The notes beneath the pieces were generated by a model. It saw only the letters and a program-made list of their open reading frames with translations, was not told where the DNA came from and searched no databases. DNA of 64,000 nt, taken from Blasia pusilla (taxonomy: Eukaryota). The stretch spans positions 44,020,001-44,084,000 of the forward strand of contig CM114271.1 in assembly GCA_050084515.1 (NCBI GenBank), given 5' to 3'. Within the stretch, counting starts at the first letter, position 1, and every line of letters starts with the position of its first letter. The position numbers and the translations under genes are program-made. Shown piece after piece: positions 3,110 to 46,682 of this stretch.

Positions 3110-4000
3110 TCAAACTGGATATAGTCCAAAACTCTTTATATATATGGGATACATCCATTGGCTTGTTGGAAGTGTATCAAGAGAGGTAATGGGGGGAGGT
3201 GTACTTAGCATGACAAGTTTCAAGCTTGACACACTAAAAAACAATGTGGTGGTTGCACCTCGTACAAATCTATCATCCATATAGCTTATGCTCGTAGGTA
3301 CCATTTTCAAGTTTGGATCTATTTTTCCATCGAAGTTTGATCAGAAGTAGACATGGCGAGAATTGTGCATATGACCCTTCGAAATCATATCATCTTGCCA
3401 CTCCAATATGAAGACTCTAGGTTGGTAACACTTCACAAATATGCAAAATCTAACTTGAAATAAACAAAATTTTTACATATGTTTAGAATATTCTTGTTGT
3501 CTAGTGGGAACCATGTCAAAAGGGTGGGAAGAAGGAGGGGGCATGAGTGGATTGGGATTGGGAGGAGAGGAGGGGGGTTTCAAGAATGACATATACCACT
3601 CGATCTTTGGAACAAAAATCACAAACCAACATGGTGGATGCATCTCTTGTAGATCCACACAACATACAACTCAAGGTTGTAGGTACCACGACCAATCTTG
3701 GATCTACTCTTCTATCCAAGTTTAGAACTTGTTGTAGCGAGAAGCTGCCACAATCCTCGAAACCATATTGTTACCCCCTCTTTAACACCTAGGATCGTCA
3801 ATGCTCTTTGGTGTGAGTACATATAATATCATCTCTAGGATGAAATGAGAACCTCCTCCACAAGGGGATACATCAATTTATCCTTGTGCTAAGTTCTCAT
3901 ATGCCGTGGCCATAACTCTGACAAAACTTCCACCCCTTGAGAACATTCTTGCACCCATATAAAAGGTTCATCAATGTTTAACACCTTCTCCATATCACGT
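3110..4000 (-). pseudogene. Highly decayed integrase C-terminus/PHD relics of the PHD-Gypsy family (two successive fragments)
   Basis: Translations VDPRLVVVPTTLSCMLCGSTRDASTMLVCDFC (3516-3719) and ...RGATTTLF...PPITSLDTLPTSQWMYPIY (3110-3310) align by eye with the PHD at 17396-17534. Confidence 0.7.
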
Positions 4001-5076
4001 TTAGTAGTTGTACGTTAGTCCGGCTCAGACGTTTGTGGTGTAGTGATCTATCATTACACATCAAAAAGTATTTTGGAATTGATGTTTAGGATGCTTGCCA
4101 ACTAAAGCAATATTCCATAGTCGACTATGGTAATTGGAGGCCCTAATCCCTCAAATGTGCTCACTACAAGCCATATTTGGGTAATACCCACTTCACCATT
4201 AATATTTCTTTCTCTACTAAGTGATCCACCTCAAGATGATCCCTAGATGTGGCGTAGTGATCTATCTGTGTTTGATCACACAAGGCCTTAATTTTCTTCT
4301 AGACTTGGTACCTTGGTTGGTTAACAACTCTCATGATAGATTGTGATCTCTTTGAACACGATTAAAAAATGCATAAGTTGCTCTTTCATTCGCCTTGTTT
4401 GGTAATGCCACAAATTTAATTTGAATTAATTCACTAAGAGAAATGATTTACTAAGATCAAGACATACCTATGATCATGCCTTGTCAATAACAAAGGTCCT
4501 AAAATGTATAGCCCCAACCTTATCCTTATAACCTAATCCCAAAATGGGCAAAGGATATAAATGTGGTGTTAGAGCATTGTAAGATGTTCACACTTGATCG
4601 CATACCATGAATTCGACTATAAACCACAAAATACCCTAGATGTCAGATGCCCAATATTGAACATGGAATAAACTATAAGTATGCTTTACTAAAAAAATCC
4701 CAAACTTATGGTACACATGTCACATAACACTTTCTTGCTTAGAAGAATGAGGCACTACTCGCACTCTAGTATTCTACCACCCTCCCACACGAACGAAATG
4801 TGTGACTTATGTGTGTCCCCTTCCACTTCCTTGCACTCAATATGCTCACTATGATATAACCACCATGTAAAACAAAACATCCTCATTGTCATAGACATTA
4901 CTACTACCATTTTCCTTCTCATAGTCCCCTACATGTGAGGACTCACCATCACATTCCCATTCTAAATTTGATGTATGGAATCCAACATGGAGATTTAACG
5001 TATTAATAGGAACTTCAAGATGATGATATACAACCAACACCAAGATGTAAAGTTTTGAAGGCCTTTGCATGCCCAA

Positions 5077-6650
5077 TGTCACATCTGTTAGGATAGATCG
5101 ATGAATTCATGGTAGATTTTCTTTGAGGATATTGGAGGACACTCTGTAGAGATTAAGAATGACATGTTGAGGCCTTGGGTAACTTGAGAGAGAAGATTCT
5201 CCCTTTGTTTTGGCTGATTTAGTGCTATATATATAACCTTATTAGTTCAGGTAATTAATTTTTATAAGTAGAGTTGACTTTCTACTTTGGGAACTGGCCC
5301 TTGACCGCCCCCTCCCTATAGCAGGTCAAGAGTGGCGTGCGGAAGCGTTGCCCGATTTCAGACATAAATTGAGTATGGGGCAAGTTTCTTCATGATAGTG
5401 CTCCCGCCAACACCTTTTAGCTTGCTAGATTTATGTTGCACAAGTTTGGAAATTTTTGTGGAAGAAGTCAATGCGGAAGCATTGCTAGACTCTTTGTAGG
5501 AGTTGAGATCACGTGCTGTAGAACAATCGCTGCCTGTTTGAAATGAAAGGTCAGATGAAGGAGTTGATTTAATGGCATTTTAGATCAAGAAGTCATGTAT
5601 GTTTTCAAAGAAATGATCCAAAATTTTGATGTTGGAGCTCACAGTTGTGGTTATTTTGGTGGGGTTTCCATAGCCAATGTGTGAGGGTAGAAATCCCGAA
5701 ATCTTGTGACTTCCTTTCATGGACTTAGAAAGCAAAAATCCTTTATTTTAGTACATAAGACAAGCAAGGTAAAAGTGATTTGAGGATGACAGTGAGTGAA
5801 AACTTTATTTAGTGGGTGTTGATCCAAGATTTGTGGGGCTTACTAGAGTATGAGCCAAATTTGAGATAATTTTAGTGCGTTGACCCTTTTTTAAAGTGTT
5901 AGTGGAGTGGGAAAGAAAAGATATTGACTTTAGAAGACGGTTAAAATAGAGGCATTTTACTAATGTATGACTTGACACAATTACTATTGATCTTTTTTGA
6001 CCATCAATTGTTCAACCATTATCGCCTCTTTGATGACCGTCAACTCTTTGATGGCTATTGTCAACGGATGGGGTAGAGTTTCGAGGTATGATTTGCCATG
6101 CATGGTGACTTTTAGCCACTTGACATTGATCGAGTATTGTTTTGTGACGCTCGTAGCCAAAATTTATGGTTGATGTATTTCTGTGTTGTGCCGCTCACGA
6201 CCGCACCACACCGTCTCGATCGTAGAGCCGTACCAACAGTGAGGACCGAGGCATGTATTTTAGATAAAAGTGGGGATGCATTTTTTACATGTGTCACATT
6301 CAATCATCGAGTGTCGTGCCTTTTATAACCGTGTTGTGCCGCACCACACCACTGTATCCATAGTGCAGATCGAGGAGGTTTGGGCATCGTCAACATCAAG
6401 GAATACAACTTGCTGAGTGGAGGAATTTCTCTTCGAGACCAAGTTGGGGTTGAGGTTGGCAATTGCAGAGGAGCAACACATACATTGTGTTGCAGAGGAG
6501 CAACACATGGATTTTGGGATATTGGGTAGTTATATGGGATTTTGGGTTTTTGTATATGGATGCTAAGAGCATTGTTGACATATATGGTTAGGGGACATAA
6601 AAATGTGTAGGGTGTCCAAAGTTGAGAATATGTTATGTCGATGAGACAAT
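5077..6650 (+). mobile_element. 5' end of a subfamily-2 DNMT/PHD-Gypsy copy: truncated A repeat plus leader
   Basis: Starts TGTCACATCTGTTAGGATAGAT (the A start). About 5330-6650 matches the reverse complement of the leader at about 60340-62320. Interrupted at 6651 by another copy. Confidence 0.75.
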
Positions 6651-8439
6651 TGTCGTGCGCATACACATCGCTACACAACATAAATTGTTGTCACCAAACA
6701 TACACATAAACACACACGATCCCATGCTAACTCATGGCATCCAAACAACGAGACAAGAAGTACAAAAATATCTCCAATAAATCAATGAAATCTCTCATCA
6801 ATACTCACACCAAACTCTATATGGTGTGCACTCTTGCTCATGCCAAACCAAACTCACTCTCCTAATGAGAGGCTTGGATTACACACACCAGGCCAAGAGG
6901 ACCATAGCTCCGCCGCCTCATGCCAAGAGGTTCAACAAAGAGAGAATCAGCTCTCAAGTTCTCTCTCTTGGAGGTATACCCCCTTCCCTCTCGCAAGCTC
7001 TCTCCTCGGTAATCTACGCTCGTAGGTCATCTCCTTGGTTGTTGACTTGCTGTAGCGGGTCAAGGTCCAATTCCCAAAGTGTAAAGTCAACTATACTCCA
7101 AATGGAAACTTACTTGAAATAGTAAGCTTCTCTAGATGGCTCCGAATGAGCCGGAACGAAGGGAAAACCTGCTCTCTCTGATTACCCGTGGCTTCAGCAG
7201 GTCATCCTCGACCTCTTGAGGCTGTCTTCTAGTATCTCAGAAGGTGCTCTACTAGATCTGACCGATCTATCCTAAAAGACATCACAATTGTTGTGCGTAT
7301 ACACATCGCTACACAACATACATCATTGTCACCGGACATACATATAAAGAGGCACCATCTCATGCTAACTCATGGCATCCAAACAATGAGACAAGAAGTA
7401 CCAAAATATCTCTAATCGCCCTCCTAGTTGGTGGTTAGGTCCCTCTAACTCCAGATAACCATTAATCCCTACCTACCATGACATACATCTCTCGGACGCT
7501 AAGAGCAAGAAGGTCGGGTGCTCATATGGCCCCATCGTTAGTCGCCTTCTTGTCATCCATGTCACAGACACAAGTCGGAATCTAGAACTACCTACTCTAT
7601 ATACATCATGGATACATCCATCGTCCCCAAGGAACCCTAGTGAGAGGTGGCGTCAAACATGCCATATGCTATCCTCTCGAACATCCATCACAGACTAGCA
7701 TAGTGGCTATACCACAGGCAAAACCACACAACATACATCGCAAGCTTGTAGGAATTATTGCTAAACTCAAATCAAATGTATCATCAATGTTCGGAAGATG
7801 ATATGACGCACAGTTACGCACATGGTCCTTCCAAATTATACCATCGCGTCCCTCTAATAAAAGAACACCATATGGAAAAATCTCACGCACTCTCAAGATG
7901 ATGCGTCCTGTAGTCACATCGAACGTTGTGGGTGCCGTCGTTTGTACCCTGGTCTGTCAACACCTCAATTGATGCATTGTAATGCCTCAGCACTCAATCT
8001 AGGAAGGCATACGCTACTCCCTCACTTGCTTTGTCAGGCAATGCAACCAACTCTATCCACTTCGAGAAGTGCTCGACCATCACCAACACATAAGGACTAT
8101 GGCGCTCCGTCAAAGGTAAAGGTCCTCCAAAATCCAAACTCTATCTATAACCTAGAACCATGATCAGAAGTGGATGTAACTGTGGAGTCGGAGCATTGGA
8201 CGATGCTCGGACCCAATCATACACCATGCACTTGGCAATAAACTGTTGGACATCAGTCTGCATGCCTTGCCATCAATATTGTATGTGGAGCAAGCTATAC
8301 GTCCGCTTCACTCCAAAATGACCCAACTCCTCGTGGGCATGACGCAAAAAACGTGCTCTCTGTGAAGGATGAGGTACCTATACGTACTCTACCATCCTCC
8401 CACACTCGTAACACATGTGTCCCCTCCCATCGGAACCCT
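6651..8439 (-). mobile_element. 3' portion of a subfamily-2 copy: integrase/PHD relic, PPT, B1-A2-B2
   Basis: On the minus strand: integrase fragments, PHD (CMLCGFACGIATMLVCDGCSRG), PPT 7416-7427, B1 7289-7415, A2 6778-7286, B2 6651-6777 ending GCGCACGACA. Confidence 0.85.
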
Positions 8440-8596
8440 TGTCGTATAATAAAATCACCCACTATGTAAACTCCTCTATCATTAAGTGTGAGAGAGAGTT
8501 TTATTAGTATTAAGTAAATTAGCCTAGGAAAATGAAATTTCCATGTTTAAACCTCTTTAGGGTGGGTCATTTGTGCAGGCCCAACTTTAGGAAAAG

Positions 8597-9077
8597 TGTC
8601 ACATCTGAGTAGCCGATAGGCCGAGATCTATCGAGGATAGGGCATAAGAGCCAGCGGACTATCTTGAGTGTAACTTTGTCCCACGGTGTCGGATGAGGTT
8701 GATGATAGGTCCATTGTGTCAGGAACGTCGTTCCTGACAACTTTCATGTTGAGGTCTTTTACAGTCAGGTGACTTGTTGACCAGGTCACCCGCCCTTGGT
8801 AACATGTGTGCGCCGGTTACCAAGGGAAGGGCTATTTTTAGGGAAAGAGCCTTTTGGCTCTTCCCAACCCTATATAAGAGAGGAAGATGGCTTTCCTAAG
8901 CCATCTTTCTCATGTTGGGCCGTTGGAGCACATCCCTTGTATGTGTGTGAGCTAGGACTAGGGTGCTAGCGTCCGGATTCCTTGATAGCACAGGGTGGAC
9001 GAGGCTCGATATGCTGATGTAGATTGAGGAGTGGAGTTTTAGGCCGGGTGTGCCGGTTTTACTACTCTTTATTTTTA
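8597..9077 (+). repeat. Terminal repeat A1 of element 1
   Basis: Near-identical to 17754-18231. Starts TGTCAC. Contains TATATAA at 8871-8877. Confidence 0.92.
8871..8877 (+). promoter_or_regulatory. Putative TATA box of the element promoter in repeat A
   Basis: CCCTATATAAGAG is conserved in A1 and A2 (about 18025). TATATA-like runs sit in a similar position in subfamily-2 A repeats. Confidence 0.55.
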
Positions 9078-10480
9078 CATGAGAAAGATGTCAGGGGGCT
9101 AGTGGAAATTCGTTGTTTGCAGGTAGGCAAGCAAGTTGCCTTGGTCAGGAGCCCCTGGAGACGTGTGTGTGACGTTTTATGTGTCATTTTTCTGTTCGGA
9201 AGGCCGTGGGCGGAAGCGCTGTCCGTTTTTCTCAAATTTTGCTGGTGCGGATTGATGGGGGACAGCAGCAGGGTGTAGCGCAGGTTGTGTCGGCAGGAGT
9301 AACGTCGTCTTATAGCTCGTGGAATTTCGGGAGTACCCAGGGAGAAGAGTTAGAGCTTGCAGCCGCCAGGGGGCTGTCAAGTAAAGCGGCCGGTTTAGGG
9401 TTAGGGCGCAGCGGCGACGGGCGACGGACGGGAGCCGACGGGCGGCGACGGGCGTGCACTCCCCCCCTCTCACCTCTCTCCTCCCGCAGGGAGGCCACGG
9501 GCGGACGGCCCCCCCCCCCCGTATTTAGGGCCCAAGGGGCCCGCATAGGGCCGGGGGCCCAAGTTCCCCCCCCTCCAACGTGGTAGCACGGACCATAGTC
9601 GGTCGGGCAGTTGTAGCGAACGTGGTTGGTAGCACGGACGAGGTCGGTCAGGCGAGCGCAATGGCGCATGGGCAACGTGATAGCAGGGAGGACGTCGACG
9701 TGTTGAGTGACCGACAAGTTGAACAGCGGGCGTGACATGATGTTTTTGGGGCGTGACAGGGCGTTGCAAGAGTTTACGATGGAGGGGCTGTGTGCATGAT
9801 GCCGACGGGTTGTCCGCATCTGTTGACGGGAGGATCGACGTGTTGGTCGAGGGGAGTGTTGTGTTGCGGAGATTGTCATCTCATGTGGAGGAGTGCATGT
9901 TGACGGTGTAGCAGGTTGGAGGGCGTGATCAGGTTACCCATTCGAGTCCCTTTTCCCGCACTTGTCGTGTGTGATTGAGAGTGCTGGGTATCAGGTAGTA
10001 GCTGGTGCTAGATGGGTGCAGTGATGGTGACGGGTGTAGATTCTTTTCATGTGTAGCATGTTGGTGGATATACGGCGGTTGCCGAGTAGGGGTCGCGTGT
10101 ATGACCCGAGAGAGTGTCGCTAGGTTAGGTGAGTCAGTTGGGAGGCTCATGGTGAGCCCGAGTGATGAGCGTGCGTGAGGCCGAGTATGTCATCACGGGA
10201 TTGATGTTAGCATAGGTGAGCTAGTGAGGCGTGTGGGAGACTCTCGGTGAGTCTGAGTGCTTGAGCGGGTGAGATAGGGTTTGTCATCACGGCGTTCTTC
10301 CAAGGTTCAGAAGAACGGGGTAGTGCAAGCAGTAGTAGTGGAGTGACACGGAGTGGAGTGAGATACCGAGGGGTTACCAGTGAGGAGCTCCCTCGACATC
10401 TATCTGTGACTGGATCGTCATCACTGGACACTGGGTCTAGTGACGAGATTATCGACAGAGACAGTAGTACTTGGTAGGAG

Positions 10481-12354
10481 ATGGACGACATGGGCCATTG
10501 GGGCATGCGTCTTTTCTCGAGTGCAGTGGGCACCATCGACTTAGATGATTTCATCCAGGAGTTTGACACATGGTGCGACTTCCAGGAGATACGGACCCTG
10601 ACACGGTTCAACCCTTTCATGGCATGGAAGGGGTTGTTCTAGCACTTGGAGGGTCCTCCGATGGATGACTACATGGAGTTTCGATCACTATATTCAGTAG
10701 AGATTGATGCCTGGAGGATGTATTGGGCTCCAGGATATGTGTCCACTAGTGGTCGCGAGGCACATGATGGGATTGTGAGAGGAGAGAGACCCACACCATC
10801 AGCCCGGAGACTAGATGGAGAGGAGGGCAGTGAGATAGGCGATGTGGCAGAGACCTCTGGTGGTAGAGGGCCACCCAGCTTCAGCCCCACAGTGGAGTTC
10901 TTCCGACAGTTGGGGAAGAGCTACCAGGGCGTACGCACCGACAAGCTGAAGAGTCTACAGGATTTTCAGCGAAAATCGGGTGAGAGTCTGAGAGAGGCAT
11001 TCACACACATGAGGAGGCTGATCATGATCATTGCTACGTTTGGAGTGACTGAGGCGCAGTCAGTCCAGTATTGGTATGGGGTTCTGGACCGAGAACTACG
11101 GAGGAGAGTCCGAGATGCGGTGCTGATTCACACACCGAAGCCCACATTGAAGGTGGTCTTTGAGTTGTCTGAGCGTATTGAGCTCAACATGAGTGAGGAG
11201 TAGGTAGTGACCGCTGGATTTTCTCGAGAGTGGACGGGTCCACGAGCGACGGTGACCCCACAGGTGCCACAGCGAGCACCAGTACCACGGGAGTGGGCCA
11301 GTGTGCCTAGAGATCAGGGCGGGTACCATGAGCCTATGAGGCAACGACACACACTTACATATGTTGCCCAGCAGGGAACGATGTGGTCTTGTTGGACGTG
11401 TGGAGGGGCCCATAGGCAGAGAGACTTCCCACAGCATGGGAGAGGACCACCAGCGCCTCCGATTGCTCAGGAGCCATAGAGGATGGCCCCACCACAGCAC
11501 CAGTGTGACCATTGCCATAGATATGGTCACACTAGGGATAGATGTTTTGACCTTCGCCAAGGGGCACGTCCAGGGTAGGCCGAGGGCCTGGGGGCGGTCG
11601 TCTTGGAGGAGGTTGGGGAGTTCTTCCTGGACGTGGTGGTAGAGGACCACCACCAGCCAGAGGAGATGGAGCAGGAGCACCAGAGCCGACACTTCTCTCA
11701 CGCATCGATCAGTTGGAGCAGAGGATTGCTGCCATGACGATGATGCAGCTTAAGGAAGGCACGGAGCTGCGAGCAGCTAGTGTGACTCCAACTTCTACCT
11801 CTTACCCTGACCCGGGTGAGGATCTCGCCAGTATGGGATTCATGTGTAGTGCAGCCCAGGTTGAGGCAGCTGCAGTGGTGACTTGGGGTGCTGCAAGAGG
11901 CACCGAGCCATCGAGAGGTGGAGTTGAGATTGACCCACCAGAGGGGACAGATGGGCGGCAGGCGAGGGTTCCACAGTCGTTCACATTGTCGAAGGCACTA
12001 CACACACCATCGATGGTGCCTCGACGACCAGCGGTGCCTACAGTTCAGGCATCTACGTCGACGTCACGAGGAGTTGGAGTGACAACTCCTATGCCGGCTC
12101 GAGTGGAGTCAGTATCGACTATAGTGTTGGAGGTGGCCACTAGAGTGAGTCAGACTCCGCTATTTTCCGCCATAGAGTTGGCGACGTTGGGAGTTGGACC
12201 AGCTGAGGTGTTTCGGTTGGCCGCCACGTTATGTGAGCGTGGAGAGATGACTGCTTCTTGTTCAGAGGTAGTTGAGGAGGTGGTGGACTTGCCCTCAAAG
12301 AGCGGTCTTTGGGGCGTTCCCACACAGTCATGGCATCTTGGCGGCGGTTGGTAG
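10481..12354 (+). pseudogene. gag: Gag of element 1 (capsid-like region plus two zinc knuckles), disrupted
   Basis: DLDDFIQEFDTWC; LQDFQRKSGESLREAF (retrotransposon gag motif); CWTCGGAHRQRD and CDHCHRYGHTRDRC knuckles. In-frame stops at about 10640 and 11201. The true start may be near 10288. Confidence 0.8.
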
Positions 12355-12860
12355 ATATGCCAGCTCGACCGGCCATAGAGCGAGTAGGGGTGACACCTAG
12401 AGTAGTGTTACTGGATAACAGAGCTGGAGTATTTCGCTTGGTTAGTCCGATGGGGATGGTATACCACCCGAAGCGCATCCTACTTGATTCGAGAGCGCAA
12501 CCCTTGATGTTAGGGAAGGCGGCGTGTTTAGCGTTGGGGTTACGGAAGGCCGACATTGAGCCTTGTCCCTTCCGATCTGAGACCTCGATTGGGGCGTATC
12601 ATTCACTCGAGATATGACTCGACAGAGATTGTTGTCGAGTCCAGCCAGAGCATGCGACGGATAGTGCTATGGTGCGCGACACGTGCGATTACGACACCAC
12701 CGAGTAAATGCGATGTGTTGGTGGGGAGTATAGTGTTATATCCCCTAGGATTCATCCTTGACTTCTGGGAGGAGACCGTTGCTTATCGGCCAGGATGGCG
12801 GTCAGGTGACGGCCGGATGAGTCAGTTACCCGTGCAGTTTGCGGGACGAAGTGGTTGATC
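12355..12860 (+). pseudogene. Aspartic protease domain of element 1
   Basis: ILLDSRAQPLMLG (D-S-G-like active-site position) and the downstream DVLVG motif; frameshifted. Confidence 0.75.
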
Positions 12861-13200
12861 ACGAGGCGAGTCTGTGACCACGTTGGCAGCTTTCACACGT
12901 AGTGTTAGCTGGCCAGGAGAGTTGTTGGAGGGGAACGCACATGCGGAGGATGTCCTAGGAGTGGATAGTCCCACGGAGAGACAGGCCATGGCGGGTGTCT
13001 CTTCCCATGTTGGCGAGGCCTCTTCACCATTATGGGGTACGACTTGGGAGCTACAGAGGAGTGTCGATGACCTCGTGAGGCAGGCGTGGAGTCATGTTTT
13101 TATCCCAGAGCAGCGAGAGTCACGTGGCAATCGGGCTCTTGGAGTGGAGACGATGACCCCACTAGATACCACACCTGTTGTGTGGCAGTGCCCAGAGGAG

Positions 13201-14150
13201 GGTGTTAGGGTGTTAAATCTCTTCGGAGGGATTAGCACCGGATTGGCGGCACTATTGCAGGCGGGCATACGGGTGCATCAGTACCTTTATGTGGAGAGAG
13301 ATGAGACCGCGCGGCGAGTATCATTACGTCACGTGGCGAGATTGATCCAGAGGTATACTGAGTTTTTGTCGGTATCTGCAGTACGGGGATACCAGCATAT
13401 GCTACCCGCCGACATCTCTTTAGTGGGGGCGCAGGATCTGGATAGAGTTGGCACCATTCATTTGGTGATTGCTGGATGGCCATGTCAGGGTCATTCATCA
13501 GCTGGCCGAGGATTTGGATTGCAAGATCCGAGGTCAGGAATGTTTTGGGAGATGCTGCGAGTATTACGACACTTGCAAGAGAGTCAGATATGTTCTCCAG
13601 CGTACATTTTGGAGAACGTGCCGTTGTTAGGAGACACTCGTGCACATGTGATGACGAGTGTACATCATGTGAGGTCCTGGTTGGGACCTGCTGTGTTGTT
13701 AGATGCAGCGAGAGTTGGGGTCACGTGCCCATCGTCCACGACTGTGGTGGGCGAACCTGATACCATCAGAGGTACTGAGTCGAGCATACGGTGGAGTCCA
13801 GAGAGCACCACATCTCACAGTGGATGCTATTTTGGGCTCAGGGCGTCGATCTCAGGTGGTGACACGGGATGATAGACCATCGTTGGCCATGGCCAATAGG
13901 GTGGGGGAGTTGAGGGCAGCCTTACCTATGTTGGTGAGCTTCCCAGCATCCCATGCCTTTCGTCAGGGAGGGCCATGCATGATTTGGGATGAGGTGACCG
14001 GAGCATTGGAGGAGCCTATAGCAGATGAGCACGAGCGCGCCATGGGGTTCACTACCGGTACTACGGTGGTGCGAGGGATGATTGAGGCATCACGGAGACA
14101 GGTGTTGGGGCAAGCGATGGACCTCAACTGTCTCACATGGATAGTACTAG
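13201..14150 (+). pseudogene. DNMT3/DRM-like C5 cytosine DNA methyltransferase domain embedded in pol (one frameshift at about 13718)
   Basis: Motif I VLNLFGGISTG (from 13210), II YLYVERD, IV LVIAGWPCQG (PC at 13480), DPRSGMFWE, VI YILENV (13612), VIII AHRPRLWWAN, IX EHERAMGF, X RRQVLGQAMD. Confidence 0.93.
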
Positions 14151-14452
14151 GTATGGCTGAGCAGAGACGGATGCGAGTGTCATCCATGCCGTCACGTCCA
14201 CGAGTTGGACCACTGCCTACAGGGTCTGTACATGCATTGGTTGGGGGCGAGATGAGGAGAGATAGGCACCCATGGACTTCCTGGGACGTCGTACCAGCAG
14301 AGAGTGCAAAGGCGGCTAGAGTAGCACATGTTCATTTTTCGGATGTGGAGCATGGTGTAGGAGGTCAGAGTGGAGTGGCTGTTGTGGAGGTGGCTAGGGT
14401 TGCTACATAGCAATCAAAGCCGGAGGATGCGTCCTCTCCGAGTGAGGTCACG

Positions 14453-16020
14453 ATGGAGACTTGGGAGCCTGTGATAGGTCTCAAGTTGATAGGAGGAGAG
14501 CGACGGCGAGTTCATAGGTTTTTGAGAGGGCATGTCAGTTGTTTTGCCTCCAGTATGAGAGACTTGGGTACGCTGAAGGGTCCCGGGATACGGATTGAGT
14601 TGGCTAGTGATACGCCGATCTTTCGTCGACCCTATAGGTATTCTGATATGAAGTGAGCCTTGATTCAGAGCGGCAGGGAGAGGACTTGTTGGAGGCAAGA
14701 CTTGTGGAGTTATCACATGGGGAGTATGCATCCGCCACGCAAAGTGATGCGGCGAAGAAGGATATGTATGGAAATTGGACGGATAGGCGGATGTGTGGAG
14801 ATTACCGTCCTATCAACCGCAGCAGACGAGGTCGATTGGTACGCCATGCCTACTCCCGAGGAGATCTTTGATACGGTAGGGCATGCAAAGATCTTCAGAT
14901 ACTTTAGATCTCCGTGTTGGCTATCATCGCCTTCCTATCAAAGGTTGGAGGACAGGAGAAGACAACATTCTAGGGATAGATCGGTTCGGGAGAGATTGCT
15001 TGTATCGGTGGCGGTTCTTACCATTTGGATTGAAGAACGCGCTGCATGGAGTTTCGAGAGAGTGATGCATAGGATTCTGGCTGGCTTGGATTTTGTACGA
15101 TGTTACATAGATGATATTCTTATCTTGATTCCACGGTTGAGGAGCATGAGCGACACTTGGAGGAGGTGTTTGGCGATTGCGTTACATGGACTGAAGTTAC
15201 ATCCGGCAAGTGCAGATTCTTTCAAGAGCAGATTGAGTACTTGGGACACACCATATACCCGAGTGGGTTAGGCGTTCAGACGAAGGTAGAGGCTATTCTT
15301 GCAGATTCCACGCCCTCTGAGATGTGAGTCGAGTCAGAGCATTTCTTGGACTCGAGAACTTCTATCGACGATATGTCAAGGGTTTTAGTGCGATCGCAAA
15401 GTCTTTGACCTTGTTGACAAGACTTGATCAGGTTTGGTTGTAGGGAGATGATCAAGAGCGAGCATTTCAGGAGCTCAAGGATAGGTTGACGTCCTCACCC
15501 ATTTTACAGAGACCGGTTAGGGGTCGCCCATTCCAGTTACATACGGATTGGAGCATGTTGGGTCTAGGAGCAGTGCTTACTCAGAGGGATGACGAGGAGA
15601 GGGAGTTCGTTGTGGCTTACGCGAGCCGATCGAACAACATTGCAGAGGCAAAGTACAGCTCCTACGAGGGAGAGTGCTTGGCTGCAGTGTGGGCCGTGGC
15701 ACATTTTAGGTGCTATTTATTCGGAAACCCTTTCACACTTATCACTGATCATCAGCCGTTGATGTGGTTGATGGAGTCCGACAAGCTTACGGGAAAGCTT
15801 GCCAGGTGGGCTCTATTACTACAGGAGTATGAGTTTGAGGTGGTTCATAGGCGAGGTCGGCTGAACCAGGATGCGGATGGGTTGAGTCGTAACCCATGTC
15901 CGAGTCAGAGAGACGTCAAAGGAGCTCTATGGCACGGAGAGAGTGATGAGGAGATGGTGCCCGGTTGGCATGCATCTGCCTATCTTTGTTGGTTGACTAT
16001 GGTAGGTCAGCCACAGGTGA
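14453..16020 (+). pseudogene. pol: Reverse transcriptase and RNase H of element 1 (frameshifted)
   Basis: RMCGDYRPIN, LDLRVGYH, LPFGLKNA, CYIDDIL. RNase H: LHTDWSMLGLGAVLTQ...VAYASR...YSSYEGECLAAVWAV...TDHQPL. Confidence 0.93.
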
Positions 16021-16159
16021 TGACTCTAGTGGTGGGGTTGGATGATGAGTCTTTGGATCCGGAGGTTAGTGAGGAGGCGGATGGTGTGGTCGTGATATCC
16101 ATGACGACGTGGAGGTTGTGGAGTTCTTGCAAGACCTTTGGCGTCATTAAGAAAGTACA

Positions 16160-17537
16160 GTGAGTGCTAGGGAGCGCGATCAGATCCTACAGAGAGCCAA
16201 GAGGTTCAGGTGGGAGGGGACTCACATTTTGCGGGTATGGGGAGATGGTAGGATACGAGTTGTACCTTATCCTTCCCAACGAGCACGTGTAGTGCGACAT
16301 GCCCATGAGGAGTTGGGACATTTCGGAGTAAAGCGTTGACTTACTCCAGGTTCAATATTGGTGGCGCGGCATGCATACTTTGGGTACAACAGATTTGTGG
16401 CGGATGTATGGTATGTGACATAGTGCGAGCATCCTTCAATGCTCCCACTCATGATTACATCCTTTGCCGATTATGGGTTTAGGTTATCGGTGGAGTTTAG
16501 ACTTTGCGGGACCTTTGCAATTGTGTGAGGCGTCATCATAGGTACGTGTTGGTCATGGTGGAGCATTTCTCCAAGTGGATAGAGTTGGTGGCACTACCAG
16601 ACAAGGCGAGCAAGGGAACAGCTTATGCGTTTCTAGATCGTATGCTTAGTCACCTTGGTGCACCGGCGGAGGTGTTGACTGACCAGGCTACCGAGTTCAG
16701 GGGAGAGTTTCAGGCCTTGTGTGATCAGGCGCTCATAGATCACCGCACCACGTCCAGAGATCATCCTGAGGCGGATGGGTTGGCGGAGAGAGTGGTACAG
16801 ACGGTGAAGAGAGGATTGCGCAAGTATGGCTTGCAGCGGGGATAGTTGAGGGAGTGGGACCTACAGTTGCCATGGTTGGCTATGGATTATCGCTTTAGTC
16901 GGCAGGCATCCTTGGTGTCATTTTCACCGTACTTTTTGCTCTTTGGGAGAGAGCCAAATTTACCTGCAGTGACTCGACGTGACATGGCGGAGGTGTTAGA
17001 TCTTGATGATCCAAATGTGTGGGTACAAGCATGTTCTCAGAGGGCAGAAGTTTTTCATAGAGTTATGCCTATGGCCTTTGAGAACTTAGCTATTGCCCAA
17101 CATAGAGATACATTGAGGTACGCGACCATTCGTGGAGGAGGTTATCATCCAGAATTAGGAGGTTTCATCATGGCGATTACGTGTATTTACAACAGGCAGC
17201 ACCCACGACGCTAGATGTCACTGCAGGGCGCACGATCCTACGTGTGCGCGAGGTATTACCGACCGGAGTCCTCATATTGGAGGGATGGGATGGTATGGTT
17301 TGGAAGGATCATGTGCGCAATTGTGCACCATGTCATCTTCCGAACGTAGATGGGACGGTGGATCCGAGCTTGGCAGTGGTACGTGCATGCTTGAGGTGTA
17401 TGTTGTGCGGATCTGCGAGGGGTGCAGCCACCATGTTGGTATGTGATGGTTGTTCTCGAGGGTGGCATATGTCATGTCTGACCCCCCCTCTTGATGTGGT
17501 TCCCACGGGACAATGGATGTGTCCGAGATGTGTATAG
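16160..17537 (+). pseudogene. pol: DDE integrase with C-terminal PHD finger of element 1
   Basis: HAHEELGHFG (HHCC start), WSLDFAGP, VEHFSKWIE, VLTDQATEF, HPEADGLAERVVQTVK. C4HC3 PHD CMLC...VCDGCSRGWHMSCLTPPLDVVPTGQWMCPRC, then stop. Confidence 0.93.
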
Positions 17538-17603
17538 GGTAGTAGGTCATGTCAGAGAGATGTGATATTTTCTATCTGGAGTTAGGGGGATCCAACTTCC
17601 AGC

Positions 17604-17614
17604 TAGGGGGGCGA
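17604..17614 (+). other. Polypurine tract immediately before repeat B1
   Basis: TAGGGGGGCGA followed by TTG. The same motif precedes B in four other copies (7416-7427 minus, 36521-36531, 47252-47262 minus, 57908-57918). Confidence 0.8.
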
Positions 17615-18368
17615 TTGTGTGATCTCCATGTATATGTATGAGTTGATTTTTGTATATGTGTGGATCGACCCGTGTGTGGGGAAGATCGATGTTGTGTGGT
17701 GTAGATGTGACGAGCGATGTATGTTGTGTAGCGATATGTATCGCACGGCAATTTATCACATCGAGTAGCCGATAGGCCGAGATCTATCGTGGATAGGGCG
17801 TAGGAGCCAGCGGACTATCTTGAGTGTAACTTTGTTCCACGGTGTCGAATGAGGTTGAGGATAGGTCCATTGTGTTAGGAACGTTGTTCTTGACAACTTT
17901 TATGTTGAGGTCTTTTACAATCAGGTGACTTTTTGACCAGGTCACCCGCCCTTGGTAACCTGTGCGCAGGTTACCAAGGGAAGGGCTATTTTTAGGGGAA
18001 GAGCCTTTTGGCTCTTCCCAACCCTATATAAGAGAGGAAGATGGCTTTCCTAAGCCATCTTTCTCATGTTGGGCCGTTGGAGCACCTCCCTTGTATGTGT
18101 GTGAGCTAGGACTAGGGTGCTAGCGTTTGGATTCCTTGATAGCACAGGGTGGGACGAGGCTCGATATGCCGATGTAGATTGAGGAGTGGAGTTTTAGGCC
18201 GGGTGTGCGTTTTTACTACTCTTTATTTTTGTTGTGTGATCTCCATGTATATGTATGAGTTGATTTTTGTACATGTGTGGATCGACCGGTGTGTGGGGAA
18301 GATCGGTGTTGTGTGGTGTAGATGTGACGAGCGATGTATGTTGTGTAGCGATATGTATGCGCACGACA
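17615..18368 (+). repeat. 3' composite repeat B1(17615-17750)-A2(17754-18231)-B2(18232-18368) of element 1
   Basis: ttgtgtgatctccatgtatatgtatgagttg...gcgatatgtat(g)cgcacg(g/a)ca occurs twice, flanking a full copy of A. Confidence 0.92.
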
Positions 18369-19587
18369 AAAGAGAAAATAAATAAAAGATGGATTATAAA
18401 AGTAAAGTAGTGGGATTGCTGCTTTAATAAAAGAAAAACAAAAGTAGTCTTGGTTGGTGGCTAGGATAGTTTGGGTAGTTTGGAAGATATCAAGTGAGTT
18501 AAGGAGGATATTTTTGAAGAGATAAGAGGTAATCTACTTGTGTCAAAATATGATTGACAAAGCCTTGAGAGGAAGCAATGTGGCACAAGATAAGATAAGC
18601 CCTATTTCATACTCTTGTGGATCTCTTGTGAGTATATAAAGACGAGGGACCTTCAAGGGTTCATCACCTTCTACTTCACATCTTGAATTTCTTGCATCAC
18701 TCTTGAGTGGATGGCTTTGGAATTGCTTGATTTTCCAATGAGAGTGGATTATCCTTCTTGGGAGAGTAACTTGGCCATGGTCTATTATTTGAGAGGTTTC
18801 TAGAGTGTGGTATGTGTGGAGATGAGAGACTAGTCACCTTAGAAAAGTTTAGTCATACTAAAGATAATGAATTTTTTGGCTTGATATTTTGCCAATGAGA
18901 GTGGATTATCCCTCTTGGGAGAATTGTTCCGCCAAAATCCAATCTTGAGGAGAGTAGAGAATGTCCGTCAAGTATGGATAGGGATAGACCACGAGTTGTG
19001 CCCTATTTTCCTTTCCTTAACTCGTACCACGTGAAGGTTCTCTTTGTAGATAGGTGTTGGTTTACTCGCTATCTATTTTATCATTTTCGGGAGGTTTTCA
19101 TGAACTAGGTAATGCAATCTCCAACTTCCGTGATTCTTCCTATTGTCAGGTATGGGAGGCCATAGGATTGTATGTTGTATGTTTTTATATAAAAATCCAT
19201 GGATCTTAATAGACCTACTCAAGTAAGGTTTAATACAGTTGTGCAATTTTCCTTGTGTACAAACGTAAAGTACTTTATAGAGACTTCATAGTTAAGAATT
19301 TCGGGGTTCGATGTTATGAAGAAGTGATCGCCTCGGCACTATCATTCGTGATTGCTGTCGTGAGAGAATGGAGGGTTTATATAATAATTTTGTACTGAAA
19401 AAGGAGAACTACTTATAGAGTTTGGCTTGCATTATCCACGCCTATTGCAGCTAGGAGGTCCGCCCTTACTCTTGGAAAAGCTCTCGACACGACAAATGGT
19501 GCTTTTGCTGAGAGCTCTTTGAGGTGGTTGATTTTGTTTACAAGTTGGAGTCTTATCGAGTTGACTACTTTTGGTAGTACTTCATCA

Positions 19588-19935: not shown

Positions 19936-20900
19936 AGGGGAAAAATATATATAAATCAACATTGGTGACCCAACTTGTTGGAAATCCTATGCTTTAAAAA
20001 GATAGACTATTAAGAGTGAGAAGTTCATTGACATCTAGTATTCCTAAAGTTCGTTTACGACCTTCATATACACCAATTGCGTCATGTACATTAGATATTG
20101 GTAGTACATGTGCTATGTTGTTCAAAGAGGAAGCTTTGCAATCTTCTACCTCGAGGGCTACATCATCTAGACAGAGAGGAAAAAAACTCAAGGAGTCCCT
20201 ACAAATTGCATGGAAAGAGGATATACTTACAAAGCTTGGATAGGTAAAGTTCAGAAGTTGAGGAGAAAAATAGGAAAATATTATAGAAAAATAAGACATG
20301 AAGTATCATTACATGATAGGGGTAGATCTGAACATGTTGGAGAATCCATAACAGAAAACGATGGGATAGAGTGTAAGTTCAATTGGTTCACTCCTGTGAA
20401 TCAATTAGATCCTCATGATAGAAAAGTTGTAGATGCATTCTTAAAAGACAAGAGAACCTTGAGTCTTTAAAATATTTATGACAAAGTATTTACATCAAGC
20501 TTGATGTATATTTCATTGAAATATATTTGTATGATGTCTAAGTGTATTGTATATTCTATTTTTCATTAACATCCAATTGAATCATTGAACTATGCTACTT
20601 TGGTATAAATTGTATATGCATGCAAAAGAGGCCATAGGTTTTTCGAAGATTTTTATAATAGTGAAAGGATTATTAAAATCCATAATTGAAGAAATTATAA
20701 TAGTGATGCCTCAATTAAAAATTGCAAAAAAAAACTAAAGAGGGTCTGATTAATTAAACAAAAATAATAGCGAAGGGTCACTTTAAAGGCCTGCCATCGC
20801 ACATGATGTATTAGACCATCTAGGTGACATCCCCGAGCCTCCAGCTCTGCGTGCAACATGGGACAATGTCATAGATCCAAGCGCTTCGAACTATGCCTCT

Positions 20901-21233
20901 ATGATGTTGGCACCAACATCTCTTAATCCGAGCATACAAGTGCAAGATCTTCCGGATTCGATGAAGGAAATAGCAGTAAGTGAAGGAGGGGCTCTCATGC
21001 CAAACAAGTGGCCCAAATGCATGATCTGCTTCAACCCCATTGTTGGAAAAGATTGCTACGTGACAGGCACATGTAAAGCTTGTTATTGGCATCCATATTG
21101 TCTTCAAAAGGCCATGCTACTATCTCACAAGTGTCCAACTTGTAGGCAAGCTTGGTTAGGAAGACTCTATCACCTTTTTGGCATATCTTTCTTTGCTCGT
21201 GGTGGCAATGCACCACCCACATATCGCAAGTGA
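20901..21233 (+). CDS. Small RING-like zinc-finger ORF, probably transposon-associated
   Basis: C-x2-C-x14-C-x2-C-x2-H-x2-C-x10-C-x2-C: CMIC...CKACYWHPYCLQKAMLLSHKCPTC. Confidence 0.55.
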   Translation: MMLAPTSLNPSIQVQDLPDSMKEIAVSEGGALMPNKWPKCMICFNPIVGKDCYVTGTCKACYWHPYCLQKAMLLSHKCPTCRQAWLGRLYHLFGISFFARGGNAPPTYRK

Positions 21234-21301
21234 ACCCAAGAGCAAGAAAATTTCACTTTCAGTTTGGGACATCGTAGCCCCGATCGAACTATAACCCCGA
21301 A

Positions 21302-21787
21302 GTGAACATAGACGGGGAGGTTCAAACAGAAATCCCTCATCAACATAGGATTGATCCAGCAATGCGAGCGTGGCTAGTCCGCTTCATTGACATGTACGAT
21401 CAAGGAGAGCTCATCCACAGAATAGCCATTGATCTCCAAAATCGAGAGGTAGAAAACTTCTTCTTTGCTGAGGGGTTGAATCCACATGAACTCCGAGACG
21501 CCCTCAACACAGCTCGACAACTTGTGCTAATGCATCATCAAAATCCATTGGTGGATGATCTTATTTTAAGGAGACTAGAATTGATCTTGCCACCTTTCTT
21601 ATGGCAAGATATTCCTCAAAGTACTGAAGGCGGATATCCTCAAACATACTATTACCCTTGTCGAATGCAAGAAGAACTCTTTGGATTCTTCCAGAGAGAG
21701 TGGGAGATATTTCCAACAGAGCCAACACAAGAAGTACGTGATGGTGAAGCCGATGTTGGTGTAATGTATCAGAAGTTTAAGAATTGA
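21302..21787 (+). CDS. Hypothetical protein-like frame downstream of the RING ORF
   Basis: 161 open codons with helical, protein-like composition in an AT-rich context; no recognised domain. Confidence 0.3.
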   Translation: MNIDGEVQTEIPHQHRIDPAMRAWLVRFIDMYDQGELIHRIAIDLQNREVENFFFAEGLNPHELRDALNTARQLVLMHHQNPLVDDLILRRLELILPPFLWQDIPQSTEGGYPQTYYYPCRMQEELFGFFQREWEIFPTEPTQEVRDGEADVGVMYQKFKN

Positions 21788-23944: not shown

Positions 23945-26620
23945 TATCACTCTTGCAAAGTCTCAACCCAAATGAAGTTGTGACCACAACTTTAAAAATG
24001 ACCTTTTAGACCTGCAACACTAAACCTTGAATGAAAAAAAAAATCTTTAATTTTTCATCTTGTCCAACGTTTCCATCTTGAGCTGAAATTTGGCCCACAT
24101 GGTCTCCAAGGTACATGTAGTACTATTGCTAAGCTTCATGCCAAATGGAGTTGGGACCTCAAGCTCAAAAATTTCCAAGTCCTTTTAGGACCTCAACCAT
24201 TAGACCTTCTCTCAAAATAATGTTTTTTATTTTTCATCTTGTCCAACTTTCTCATCTTAAGCTGAAATTTGGCCCACATGGTCCCCAAGGTTCATGTTCC
24301 ACTCTTGAAAAGTTTCAAGCAAAATGGAGTTGGGACTACAAGCTCAAAATTTTCTAAGTGTTTTTAGGACTCGAGCCATCACACATTCTATGAAAATAAG
24401 GTTTTTTTGTTTTCATCATCTCTAACTTTCTCATCTTGAGCTCAAATTTGTCCAACATGATCCCCAAGATTCATGTTCTATTCTTGCCAAGTTTCAAGAA
24501 AAATGGACTTGTGAGAAAACCTCACAAATTAATAACTCCTTTTCGAACCCGAACCACCAGACTTTCTCATTTTTCATCTTGTCCAAATTTTTCATCTTGA
24601 GCTCAAATTTGGCATACATCATCCCCAAGGATCATGTTCTACTCTAGCCAAGTTTGGAGCAAAAATTAACAAATCCTTCTTTGACTCGAACCATGGGACC
24701 TTTTATCAAATTAAGGTTTTTTTCATTTTTCATCTTGTCCAACTTTCCCATCTTGAGCTGCACTTTGGCCCATACAGTCTCCAAGATGCATGTAGCACTC
24801 TTGCCAAGTTTCAAGAAAAATGGAGTTTGGACCTCAAGCTCAAAAATTGGTAAGTACTTTTTTGACCCGAACTATCATATCTTCTATGAAAATAAGGTTT
24901 TTTCATTTTTCATCTTGTCCAACTTTCTCATCTTGATCTCAAATTTGGCCAACATGATTCCCAAGGTTCATGTTATACTCTTGCCAAGTTTTAAGCAAAA
25001 TGAATTTGTGAGAAAAACCTCAAAAATTAATAACTTCTTTTTGGACCCAAACCATCAGACCTTTTATCAAATTAAGGTCTTTTAAATTTTCCTCTTGTCC
25101 AAATTTCCCATCTTGAGCTACAATTTGGCCCACACGGTCTTCAAGGTGCATGTATCATTCTTGCCAAGTTTCCAAAAAAAAAGGAGTTGTGAGCAAAACT
25201 TCACAAATTAATAAGTCCTTTTTTGACCCAAACCATCACACCTTCTATCAAATTAAGGTTTTTCTTCATTTTTCATCTTATTCAATTTTCCCATCTTCAA
25301 CTGAAATTGGGCACACATTTTTCCCAGGGTGCATATTCCACTCTTTCCAAGTTTCAAGAAAAATGGATTTATGAGCAAAACCTCACAAATTCATAACTCC
25401 TCTTTGGACCCAAACCATCAAACCTTTTATCAAAATAAGGATTTTTCTATTTTCATCTTGTCCAAATTTCCCATCTTGAGCTCCATTTTGGCTCATAGGG
25501 TCTCTATGGTGCATGTAGCACTTTTGTCAAGTTTCAAAAAAAATGGAGATGAGACCACAAGCTCAAAAATTTCCAAGTCCTTTGACCCGAACCATAAGAC
25601 CTTCCAAAGGGGTTCATTTTTCATCTTGTCCAACTTTCTCATCTTGAGCTGAAATTTGGCATACATAATCCCCAAGATTCATGTCCTAATTTTTCCAAGT
25701 TCCAAGAAAAATGGAGTTGTAAGCAAAACCTCACAAATTAATAACTCTTTTTTAGACCCGAACCATCAAACCTTCTAATTATAGAAATAATGTTTTCTCA
25801 TTTTTCGTCTTGTCCAAATTTCTTATCTTGAGCTGAAATTTGGCTCACATGGTCTCCAAGGTTCATGTTACACTTTTGCCAAGTTTCAAGCAAAATGGAG
25901 TTGTGACCATAAGTTCAAAAATTGGCAACTCCTTTTTTGACCTGAACCAACAAACCTTGAATAAAAAGAAGATCTTTTTATTTTTCCACTGGTCCAACTT
26001 TCTCATCTTGAGCTGAAATGTGGCCCATATGATCTCCAAGGTGCAAGTAGCACTCTTGCCAAGTTTTAAGCAAAATGGAGCTCGGAGAAAAACCTCAATA
26101 ATTGGTAAGTCCTTTTTGGACCCAAATCATCAATCCTTGAATGAAAATAGGGTTTTTTCATTTTTCATCTTGTCCAGATTTTCCATTTTGAGCAAAAATT
26201 TGTCCCACATGGTCCCCAAGGTGCATGTTCCACTCTTGCCAAGTTTCAAGTAAAATGGAGTTGTGAGAAAAACCTCACAAATTAATAAAGTGTTCACAAA
26301 TTAAGAACTGAAAAACCTCACAAATTAATAACAAATATCATGTTGTCCAAATTTTCTATCTTGAGGTGAAATTTGGCCCACATGGTCTCCCAGATGTATC
26401 TAGTAGTGTTTCCAAGTTTTACCCAAAATGGAGTTGTGACCAAAACCTCAAAAATAGTAAGTACGTAACCCTAAACCATTAAACCTTCAATGCAAATAAG
26501 GTTTTTTCATTTTCCATCATGTCCAACTTTCCCAAGTTGTCTTTGTAGCACTCTTGCAAAGTTTTGAGCAAAATGGAGTTGTGACCATGAGCTCAAAATC
26601 ACACTTGCCAATTGGACCTT
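23945..26620. repeat. Diverged tandem array, ~180-bp monomer, about 15 copies
   Basis: The motif ttttcatcttgtccaa...atcttgagctgaaatttggccca...ctcttgccaagtttcaag recurs at about 24051, 24231, 24411, 24727, 24907, 25088, 25269, 25449, 25801, 25981 and 26161. Confidence 0.92.
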
Positions 26621-28131
26621 CAATGTAAAAACGAATGCTTTATTAGCGAGAAGGTTATAAAAGGAATGTCATAAAAATGACATTCTTACAATAGTCAACA
26701 AAAAATAAGTTTTCTACAACTATCTACTAATCTGTTTGACTAAATTTACTAATTACTCTTCTAGTCTAGGTTGATGGTTGGGTAATTAATATTTTAATTC
26801 TAGTGGATTAAGATGTAAGCGGTAATTTGACGGCTCAATAGTTCGAAGTAAGGTGGATCAGCGACAAGTTCCTATTTCAGTTGTTTCATCGTCGGAGGAA
26901 ATGTATGAAATATCCATGCCATGATTGATTGGTTGAGAATTTGGAACCATAGGTATGAGAACATCATTATTGTTAGGCTCATCAACTAAGTCCACCGTTT
27001 CAACGCTTAAATATTATGGAGGAGTATCCCGCATAGGTTCACTAGACTCGGTGGAACAATTCTGAACTCCTATTGGTGCAAAAATCTGAGGGTCGTAGGT
27101 TGTATTAGGAGAAGTGTTGGGCAGATTGGATTCGCTTGAAGCTCTCCGTTGTTGCTCTTCCTCCTGCTCTCAAATCCAATGTTCCATTTGAATCTTCCAA
27201 GCCTCTCGGAGTCAAAATTTTCAGATTTTCCGATATGAGTATCCTCTCTCCCTTTGATGCCATGAATTCCGCATATCACATCCGCCTCCTTTAGGTCCTC
27301 ATCTTGCAATTCAAGGTTATCTTCATGATTACTATCACGGTTTCTTGCATGCAAGCTAGATTCACTGCCATCTTCTACTACCCTTCTAGCTTGTTCTTGT
27401 CCATCCCTTTCAGAAAAGTATTGCTCATACAAGAGCGCTTCTCTTGATTTTCGAGAAACACCCTTGTCTGCAAATGGTGAGTTTGTGTAGATGTACACCA
27501 AATCCCTGGCATGCTTGTTGGTCAATTTATTCCTGTGCTTGTTGTGGATGAAACCATAACTACTCCAATTTCTCTCTGTTGAAGAAGATGAAACCACTTG
27601 TGCTAATATGGACTTAGCCACAGAGCGCAATGTTGGTGCACCTTGACTGTGCATGCTCCACCAATAAGAGGGGCCAAGTGAATCAACTACTTCCCTACCA
27701 AACTCATCCACAAATAGTTCTTCATGGTTCATAATGTTGCCAAACTCTTGCAAGCAAGTAGCCACATAAAAATTAGCCTTGGTGACATAGAGGTCATGCA
27801 CCCCCTTTGCATAGAGTTTCAGATATTGTTTGAAATCTCTTATGCACTCATCATTTGAAGTGACGTCTTGAACAATATCAAGAAGATTGTAAGGGGCGAG
27901 AATGTAGCCTATTGCATGTAACTTGTTGTGGATAAGTGCCCACCACCTAGAAATAACATCAATCATCTCCGTAGCTCTAGACATTGTGACAAAATAATCG
28001 CGACACCTTCCACCCACACCGGGCCATGGAGTTACAAGAAAAGAACGAGTCTCTTCCATTATCTAAAAAATATGGCGATAAATACATGCCGTCATTGCTT
28101 TATCACCATCACACTCTCTCAATAGAATAAT

Positions 28132-35214: not shown

Positions 35215-35289
35215 CACAAGTAATCCAAGCATACCCCATTCTCATGGATGGGCCCGCAAAGTGGATGCTAGAGAGCGAGATTGGATCCT

Positions 35290-46412: not shown

Positions 46413-46591
46413 CATCACATATACATCACATCACTACACAACATATATTGTTGTCACCAAATGCACAACATACAAAACACACGAGATCCCATGTCAACTC
46501 ATGGAATCCACACAACGAGATGAGAAGCACCAAAATATCTCCAATAAATCAAGTGGAACTCACTCACAACAAGATCTCACAAATATGCACA

Positions 46592-46682
<91 letters not shown>

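Follow-up and report, generated by a model that had tools for sequence, protein, structure and literature searches.

Judged by its motif order and its homologs, the cytosine methyltransferase (MTase) encoded in the DNA analyzed here, a stretch of 64,000 nucleotides (the window), is a DNMT3-type enzyme with unrearranged motifs that is carried by a Gypsy retrotransposon. It occurs in element 1 (copy 1) and, diverged, in copy 2; in both, it forms the last domain of an ORF1 (Gag-CCHC-protease-DNMT3) that ends at an in-frame TAG, at 14408 and 54613, respectively. We favor, with slightly better than even confidence, a reading in which packaged DNMT3 would methylate the element's own cDNA or circle before a PHD-bearing integrase inserts it. 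A wider picture is put forward more tentatively, at clearly less than even confidence. In that picture, an old green-lineage Gypsy class, recently active in Marchantia, would package DNMT3 at capsid stoichiometry by means of a leaky stop, pre-methylate its own cDNA, and integrate from a circle through DDE-integrase cleavage of an LTR-internal att site.

A first, sequence-only reading of the window had described a complete C5-MTase domain of "DNMT3/DRM-like" type. The ORF at 12859-13872 matched PF00145 above the cut-off, as that reading had anticipated (E = 6.4e-10; 39.4 bits, cut-off 22), and motifs I (LFGG), IV (WPCQ), VI (ENV), VIII (AHRPR), IX and X were all found in canonical order. The domain is complete in its motifs but not in its frame: mapped on an intact relative, copy 1 runs through two frames with a break near 13716-13720, and no stop was present in 336 of 338 mapped positions. 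The best solved relatives of a single MTase sequence were DNMT3A/B (E = 3e-6), and a 17-sequence MTase profile matched DNMT3A at E = 7e-27, against 3e-14 with a DRM-type chain and 3e-10 with M.HaeIII. When searched alone against the PDB, the C-terminal half of the MTase gave no match, although the profile search did. The fold comparison was run on the MTase of a stop-free relative (L004) rather than on the broken window copy; its predicted structure had a pLDDT of 89.6, with DNMT3A as the top Foldseek match (E = 1.4e-19; TM 0.70/0.82). The DNMT3 part of the original label thus stood, whereas the DRM part was rejected, given that DRM enzymes are circularly permuted and that DRM chains matched profile positions 10-137 only. 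A phage or bacterial donor was likewise not indicated, with viral contigs giving 3 matches only, at 29-35% identity and far out in the MTase tree. The MTase of copy 2 is 67% identical to that of copy 1 in DNA. It had been described as the same domain with conserved motifs, and the PC, ENV and AHR motifs are indeed present, but they are scattered over all three frames. The terminal repeats of copy 2, described as different, do differ in repeat B, except for its last 43 nt, which are 93% identical; no A repeat belonging to copy 2 was found.

Element 1 has the Ty3/Gypsy domain order, Gag-PR-RT-RH-INT, with a DDE (rve) integrase (Table 1). Its protease motif, LLDSRAQP, lies at about 12480, upstream of the MTase, with RT starting at 14450. 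At the protease active site both window copies read DSR, while 23 of the 25 full-length relatives checked read DSG or DTG. Both window copies are dead.

Table 1. Features of the Gypsy-Dnmt3 elements in the window
Feature	Position	Strand	Remarks
Element 1, whole Gypsy-Dnmt3 copy, decayed	8597-18368	+	TGTCAC...CACGACA ends; 4-bp duplication AAAG (8593-8596 / 18369-18372)
Repeat A, element 1	8597-9076	+	TATA-like box 8871-8876; inferred transcript start about 8902
Self-priming-type primer-binding site	9077-9090	+	14 nt; perfect reverse complement of 8902-8915
gag, CCHC region and aspartic protease, broken	10481-12800	+	active-site motif DSR, against DSG/DTG in intact relatives
DNMT3-type C5 cytosine methyltransferase, element 1 (copy 1)	about 13168-14176	+	canonical motif order; one frameshift near 13716-13720
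In-frame stop ending ORF1, element 1	14408-14416	+	readthrough context TAG CAA TCA
ORF2: RT, RNase H, integrase, C-terminal PHD finger (17397-17531)	14450-17537	+	broken by stops and frameshifts
Polypurine tract (PPT), directly 5' of repeat B	17600-17614	+	
3' repeats B (17615-17750), A' (about 17753-18230), B' (18232-18368)	17615-18368	+	att-like CA-NN-TG site, mutated, where B meets A'
Second, diverged DNMT3-type domain (copy 2)	53340-54310	+	several frameshifts and one stop
In-frame stop, copy 2	54613-54621	+	readthrough context TAG CAA CCA
RT-RNaseH-integrase-PHD and repeat B, copy 2	54655-58045	+	
Inverted gag-protease segment adjoining copy 2	51598-52827	-	
Second inverted gag piece beside copy 2	58045-59637		
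3' fragment of copy-2-type element (integrase-PHD-B-A-B)	6646-8440	-	

Element 1 is nested in another repeat (8500-8596 and 18373-18450), of which the form without the insertion is transcribed: RNA reads from an empty site, about 100 and 119 of them, connect 8596 directly with 18394. Integrase-PHD fragments of the Gypsy-Dnmt3 superfamily are frequent in the window, at 6646-8440 (-), 46400-47835 (-), 35250-36000 (+) and 3300-4800 (-), and some of them end in B-A-B. At 6646-6651 (-), a terminal B end is followed by ATTGTC; this resembles another att-like junction and is possibly an insertion beside, or in tandem with, another element end. Two metagenome loci (L009:5023-5457 and L011:12687-13121) carry an inverted gag-region segment in place of the integrase part, much like the inversion in copy 2. 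Other residents of the window include a Copia element at 28132-32811 (-) (LTRs 87% alike; RVT_2, E = 1e-54), lying between hAT transposase pieces at 27070-28062 and 33378-34307, and a satellite-like tandem array of about 14 diverged 180-bp units at 24011-26540. Of two ORFs at 20787-21787 (+), one has a weak RING finger (E = 4e-5, below the cut-off) and the other has no Pfam match.

The sequence-only reading had placed the enzyme inside pol, to be packaged with Pol. Instead, it lies upstream of a conserved in-frame stop, together with Gag and protease. In full-length relatives ORF1 ends 70-165 residues past the MTase. In all 53 junctions examined (51 loci and the two window copies), a stop closes the RT frame 12-20 codons upstream, and in 45 of them this stop is in the frame of the MTase C-terminal match. 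CARYY follows the stop in 52 of the 53 and the full CARYYA in 7 (both window copies, L001, L034, L065, L067 and L068), compared with 38 and 10, respectively, among the 1104 stops, junctions included, that terminate long frames in this DNA; most junction rows are close kin from one moss-like family, not independent cases. UAG-CARYYA is described as the tobamovirus-type readthrough signal (PMC3542737), and the separation of gag and pol by a stop as rare (PMC3441728). Locus L065 has retained the plan intact, with 1369 codons, TAG CAG TTA and 1047 codons as open ORFs in one frame, and no Met was found between the stop and the RT start in L001, L065, L067 or L068. In the large moss-like family reinitiation would be possible, as the context there is CAACCC and then ATG. 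We infer from the stop context that ORF2 would be expressed by stop-codon readthrough. The DNMT, lying before a stop in UAG-CARYY(A) context, should therefore be made at Gag levels and, being on the Gag side, should far outnumber RT or integrase.

In contrast to the two equivalent terminal LTRs of Ty3/Gypsy elements, element 1 is laid out as A-coding-B-A-B, with A at its 5' end and B-A-B at its 3' end; TG...CA ends, a target-site duplication (TSD) and a PPT are nonetheless present. The tyrosine recombinase without TSD that marks DIRS and Ngaro elements was not found, an rve integrase and a 4-bp TSD being present instead. The two A repeats are separated by 21 substitutions over 475 aligned columns (4.4%), and the two B repeats by 2.9%, which at rates usual for plants would correspond to a few million years. 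Of 7 full-length loci, 6 are bordered by exact 4-bp duplications, as is the window element, and none by 5-bp ones. The internal B/A junction, CACGACA-NN-TGTCA with occasional transitions, recurs in the 7 full-length loci and in L060, L065 and L067, and looks like an integrase attachment site. By sequence complementarity, element 1 has a self-priming site: the 14 nt that follow A match, as reverse complement, the sequence 31 nt past the TATA box, a length reached in none of 500 shuffles. The same geometry with a different sequence was seen in 10 of 20 left-end candidates of another family, and no such match was found in L065 or L067.

With PPT-primed and self-primed reverse transcription the working LTR would be B+A, whereas the integrated ends sit at the B/A junction. 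Cutting this junction in a two-LTR circle would thus yield A-coding-B-A-B, and in a one-LTR circle A-coding-B. There were 8 clear B-A-B cases, and 7 of 29 B ends had the A-coding-B form, which recombination between B and B' would equally give. The arrangement implies integration from a circular copy. A two-LTR circle cut at random should, however, also give the mirror form, A-B-A-coding-B, and this was not seen, as none of 21 left ends has a B end within 500 nt upstream; the simple model leaves its absence unexplained.

A search with the N-terminal half of the MTase yielded 68 longer proteins; at the top, with about 65-75% identity, were Calypogeia fissa, Marchantia polymorpha and Sphagnum, and unnamed metagenome proteins followed at 43-50% and Closterium at 41%. 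Riccia and M. paleacea were also among the protein relatives. Of the 18 proteins in one 90% cluster, 16 are named, and the 15 listed are all from Marchantia; across the cluster look-ups, named members came only from Marchantia, Calypogeia, Closterium and Scenedesmus. Five full-length M. polymorpha ORF1s (1278-1281 aa, 95-98% identical) have intact protease and catalytic motifs, which suggests recent activity. No host DNMT3 or DRM sequence was among the matches listed in the MTase protein searches, and no K. nitens-named match among the matches listed (120 of 298) or in the cluster look-ups. In a metagenome scan, 100 matches were confirmed and 80 retained as (L-numbered) loci; all were baited with the MTase, so that the sample consists of MTase-bearing relatives. 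In the MTase tree, which holds TE and phage enzymes only, without host DNMT3 or K. nitens sequences, both window copies grouped with L001, and this group was nested among Marchantia, Calypogeia and Sphagnum sequences (SH-aLRT 100 for the clade). An RT-RNaseH tree placed them with Marchantia and moss-like loci (SH-aLRT 99), the two trees grouping the same rows. On these groupings, the host is most likely a seed-free land plant. The trees were quick and midpoint-rooted, with SH-aLRT support only, and we therefore read neither a donor nor a sequence of events from them.

In relatives farther removed, the same enzyme is encoded either within a single long Gag-Pol ORF or between the RNase H and integrase domains. 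This second position is seen in a large Gypsy polyprotein clade with a related DNMT3 and a PHD finger (P0087, P0167, P0233, P0238 and kin, including Scenedesmus sp.); set against the ORF1 type, the DNMT3 domain thus occupies two positions in PHD-bearing elements. A further group of distant proteins (P0236, P0237, P0239, P0240 and P0280) combines this DNMT3 type with RNase H (PF00075) and PF12237, presumably an adenine-methyltransferase family; these are possibly DIRS-like elements with two methyltransferases. Judged by their names, the Marchantia gene models P0413, P0414, P0415 and P0418 include several copies on the M. polymorpha V (male) chromosome. Dozens of bryophyte gene models annotated as "hypothetical" or "DNA methyltransferase" are probably Gypsy-Dnmt3 elements.

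Between the two window copies, dN/dS (Nei-Gojobori) was 0.19 for the MTase (95% CI 0.07-0.27), 0.25 for RT and 0.065 for RNase H, the RT value being inflated by the decay of copy 1. Among the intact L065, L067 and L068, it was 0.10-0.13 for the MTase and 0.03-0.05 for RT, such that the MTase value was 2-4 times that of RT. In all, 13 pairs were computed, with many cross-family dS values saturated; values of 0.5-0.6 among decayed moss-like copies are due to neutral decay. The catalytic Cys was kept in 82 of 85 and the Glu in 78 of 82 mapped copies. By these measures, the DNMT is under purifying selection and maintained in the family, though less tightly than RT. The earlier proposal of a maintained family feature is borne out by these values, by the agreement of the two trees and by the named land-plant relatives; in the comparison with RT that it had called for, the MTase lay well below 1, though above RT in intact relatives.

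Two RNA runs from one study contributed 2289 and 2544 reads. Only 11 and 21 of these had at least 99% identity, and the reads therefore come from other copies; the organism of the runs may also differ from that of the window (the best DNA match shares 43% of words, and none of the matches listed is recorded as RNA). Depth over the MTase was 3-10 in one orientation and 0-0.14 in the other, consistent with sense transcription of the MTase of related copies, assuming a standard stranded library. Codon-junction CpG observed/expected ratios were 0.88 and 0.60 in the window copies, 0.49 and 0.40 in the neighbouring Copia and hAT elements, and 0.11 and 0.35 in the intact L001 and L065, in which CHG was not depleted. 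As a sign of self-methylation, CpG depletion is thus mixed and was not used as support.

In the mechanism that we favor, ORF2 (RT-RNaseH-integrase-PHD) would be made by stop-codon readthrough, and DNMT3, produced at about one per Gag, would be freed by the protease and would enter the particle in greater amounts than RT and integrase. Reverse transcription would be self-primed and PPT-primed, with B+A as the working LTR; the cDNA would circularize, and the DDE integrase would cut the internal CA-NN-TG junction to leave recessed CA-3' ends. If packaged DNMT3 methylates its own double-stranded cDNA or circle before integration, a new copy would arrive already marked. In favor of this reading are the DNMT3 identity, purifying selection, stop context, TSDs, junction, self-priming and sense RNA, together with the de novo CG methylation by Symbiodinium retrotransposon Dnmt3s (SymbioDIRS-Dnmt3) reported in yeast (PMC5890265). 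Against it count the window copies being less CpG-depleted than Copia and hAT, the MTase dN/dS exceeding that of RT, and the K. nitens Gypsy Dnmt3 showing no activity in yeast, a result called inconclusive there (PMC5890265).

Other roles for the enzyme can be weighed on the same data. It could act mainly in trans on integrated copies or host chromatin, mostly as an abundant ORF1 product, silencing itself to limit harm or silencing competitors. The ORF1 position does predict far more enzyme than one cDNA needs, the host DNMT3b of Physcomitrium makes heterochromatic CHH and de novo CG/CHH methylation (PMC6453930), and self-limitation to the benefit of the host has been raised as an idea (PMC5890265). 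We nevertheless regard a trans role as unlikely, because Pfam found no chromatin-reader domain alongside the DNMT in ORF1, the PHD finger sitting on the integrase, and because co-inheritance with RT fits a cis-acting role better. The domain might also be cargo whose catalysis is dispensable, or a spacer that binds nucleic acid. This would agree with its dN/dS being above that of RT or RNase H and with the inactivity of the K. nitens homolog in yeast (PMC5890265), but seems improbable when every catalytic and SAM-binding motif is retained, even at about 35% identity and between elements whose synonymous sites are saturated.

With regard to integration, A-coding-B-A-B could instead be copied by a Ngaro/PAT-like template switch or from linear cDNA, with the junction serving only as a template for rebuilding the ends and no circle being cut. 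This is possible but doubtful, and concerns integration only, not the DNMT. The 2-nt junction spacer, which we take to match integrase end-processing geometry, speaks against it, and the PPT before B and the primer site after A predict ordinary LTR-type reverse transcription with B+A ends. In its favor, the mirror form was not seen, recombination between B and B' could account for the 7 A-coding-B copies, and the repeat layout is that of split-direct-repeat tyrosine-recombinase elements (PMC5890265). A speculative variant, to which we give little credence, has methylation of the CpG in the att-like CACGACA shield one of the two junctions from the integrase, which would explain why only A-coding-B-A-B is seen, with 8 clear B-A-B cases and no mirror form among 21 left ends. 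The junction CpG is present in both subfamilies and internal copies often show transitions (CACAACA, CATGACA); terminal B ends, however, have the same transitions, explained by host methylation.

Why retrotransposons keep an enzyme that silences them has been an open question since 2018, with examples only from dinoflagellates and algae. With the five near-identical M. polymorpha ORF1s, this question can be asked in a plant for which genetics and methylation mutants are available; the position before a leaky stop yields the concrete prediction of an abundant, packaged enzyme, and the layout of the repeats suggests that an LTR-type integrase inserts a circular form. As the plant LTR reference set was built from paired-LTR elements (PMC6317226), an A-coding-B-A-B layout would presumably be missed. 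In the wider picture outlined at the start, asymmetric repeats would hide the Gypsy-Dnmt3 class from LTR-finding tools, and its enzymes could be an unrecognized source of bryophyte de novo methylation.

Among known systems, SymbioDIRS-Dnmt3 shares a Dnmt3 in a retrotransposon with A-coding-B-A-B repeats but has a tyrosine recombinase rather than a DDE integrase and an unrelated RT class. The EpiLTRs of Cymbomonas and Euglena also combine a C5 DNMT with a chromatin reader in an LTR element, but theirs is a DNMT4-sister enzyme with DAM and a chromodomain, and they are stated to be distinct from streptophyte Gypsy-DNMT3 (bioRxiv 10.64898/2026.05.21.726589). Tcn1 (Tf1-sushi) chromoviruses of mosses and lycophytes are likewise seed-free-plant Gypsy elements predicted to self-prime; compared by features, they differ in having conventional paired LTRs, no DNMT reported in the accessible text (PMC6317226), and a C-terminal chromodomain where the window element has a PHD finger. 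Host PpDNMT3b has the same DNMT3 catalytic fold and motif order (PMC6453930). The TE enzyme differs from host plant DNMT3 in having no introns, in lacking the companion domains of the host enzyme and in belonging to a polyprotein; host DRM differs in its permuted motifs. In IS3/IS911 circle-junction transposition and in two-LTR-junction cleavage by retroviral integrases, a DDE enzyme acts on abutted ends with a 2-3 nt spacer; here, the junction, known from sequence alone, lies inside each B+A LTR unit of a retrotransposon.

The sequence-only reading had known of no described land-plant family. None was found for land plants, including in the accessible text of PMC11982613, PMC12885004, PMC6453930 and bioRxiv 363937, nor was a leaky stop or att-like junction; supplements, Repbase and most subscription papers were outside the search and could overturn this. 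Gypsy-DNMT3 elements are cited as "streptophytes" in PMC12344493 and bioRxiv 10.64898/2026.05.21.726589, and the "streptophyte" trees of these two and of PMC5890265 may already include bryophyte members. Within these literature searches, the new features are the liverwort and moss relatives, a DNMT ending ORF1 before a readthrough-context stop, and A-coding-B-A-B repeats with a TSD, self-priming site and att-like junction. A Gypsy with an unrearranged Dnmt3 and DIRS-like repeats is, however, known from Klebsormidium nitens (KnitGypsy-Dnmt3), with a Ka/Ks under 0.2, and has been described as an acquisition of that lineage (PMC5890265, de Mendoza et al. 2018). The accessible account makes no mention of a TSD, att-like junction, self-priming site, PHD or Marchantia ("PHD" and "Marchantia" have 0 occurrences). 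Its DNMT is described as lying in the Pol ORF, whereas here it ends ORF1 before a readthrough-type stop. The Gypsy domain set, unrearranged Dnmt3, A-coding-B-A-B repeats and purifying selection on the DNMT are shared, and the window element works like KnitGypsy-Dnmt3 and is probably related to it.
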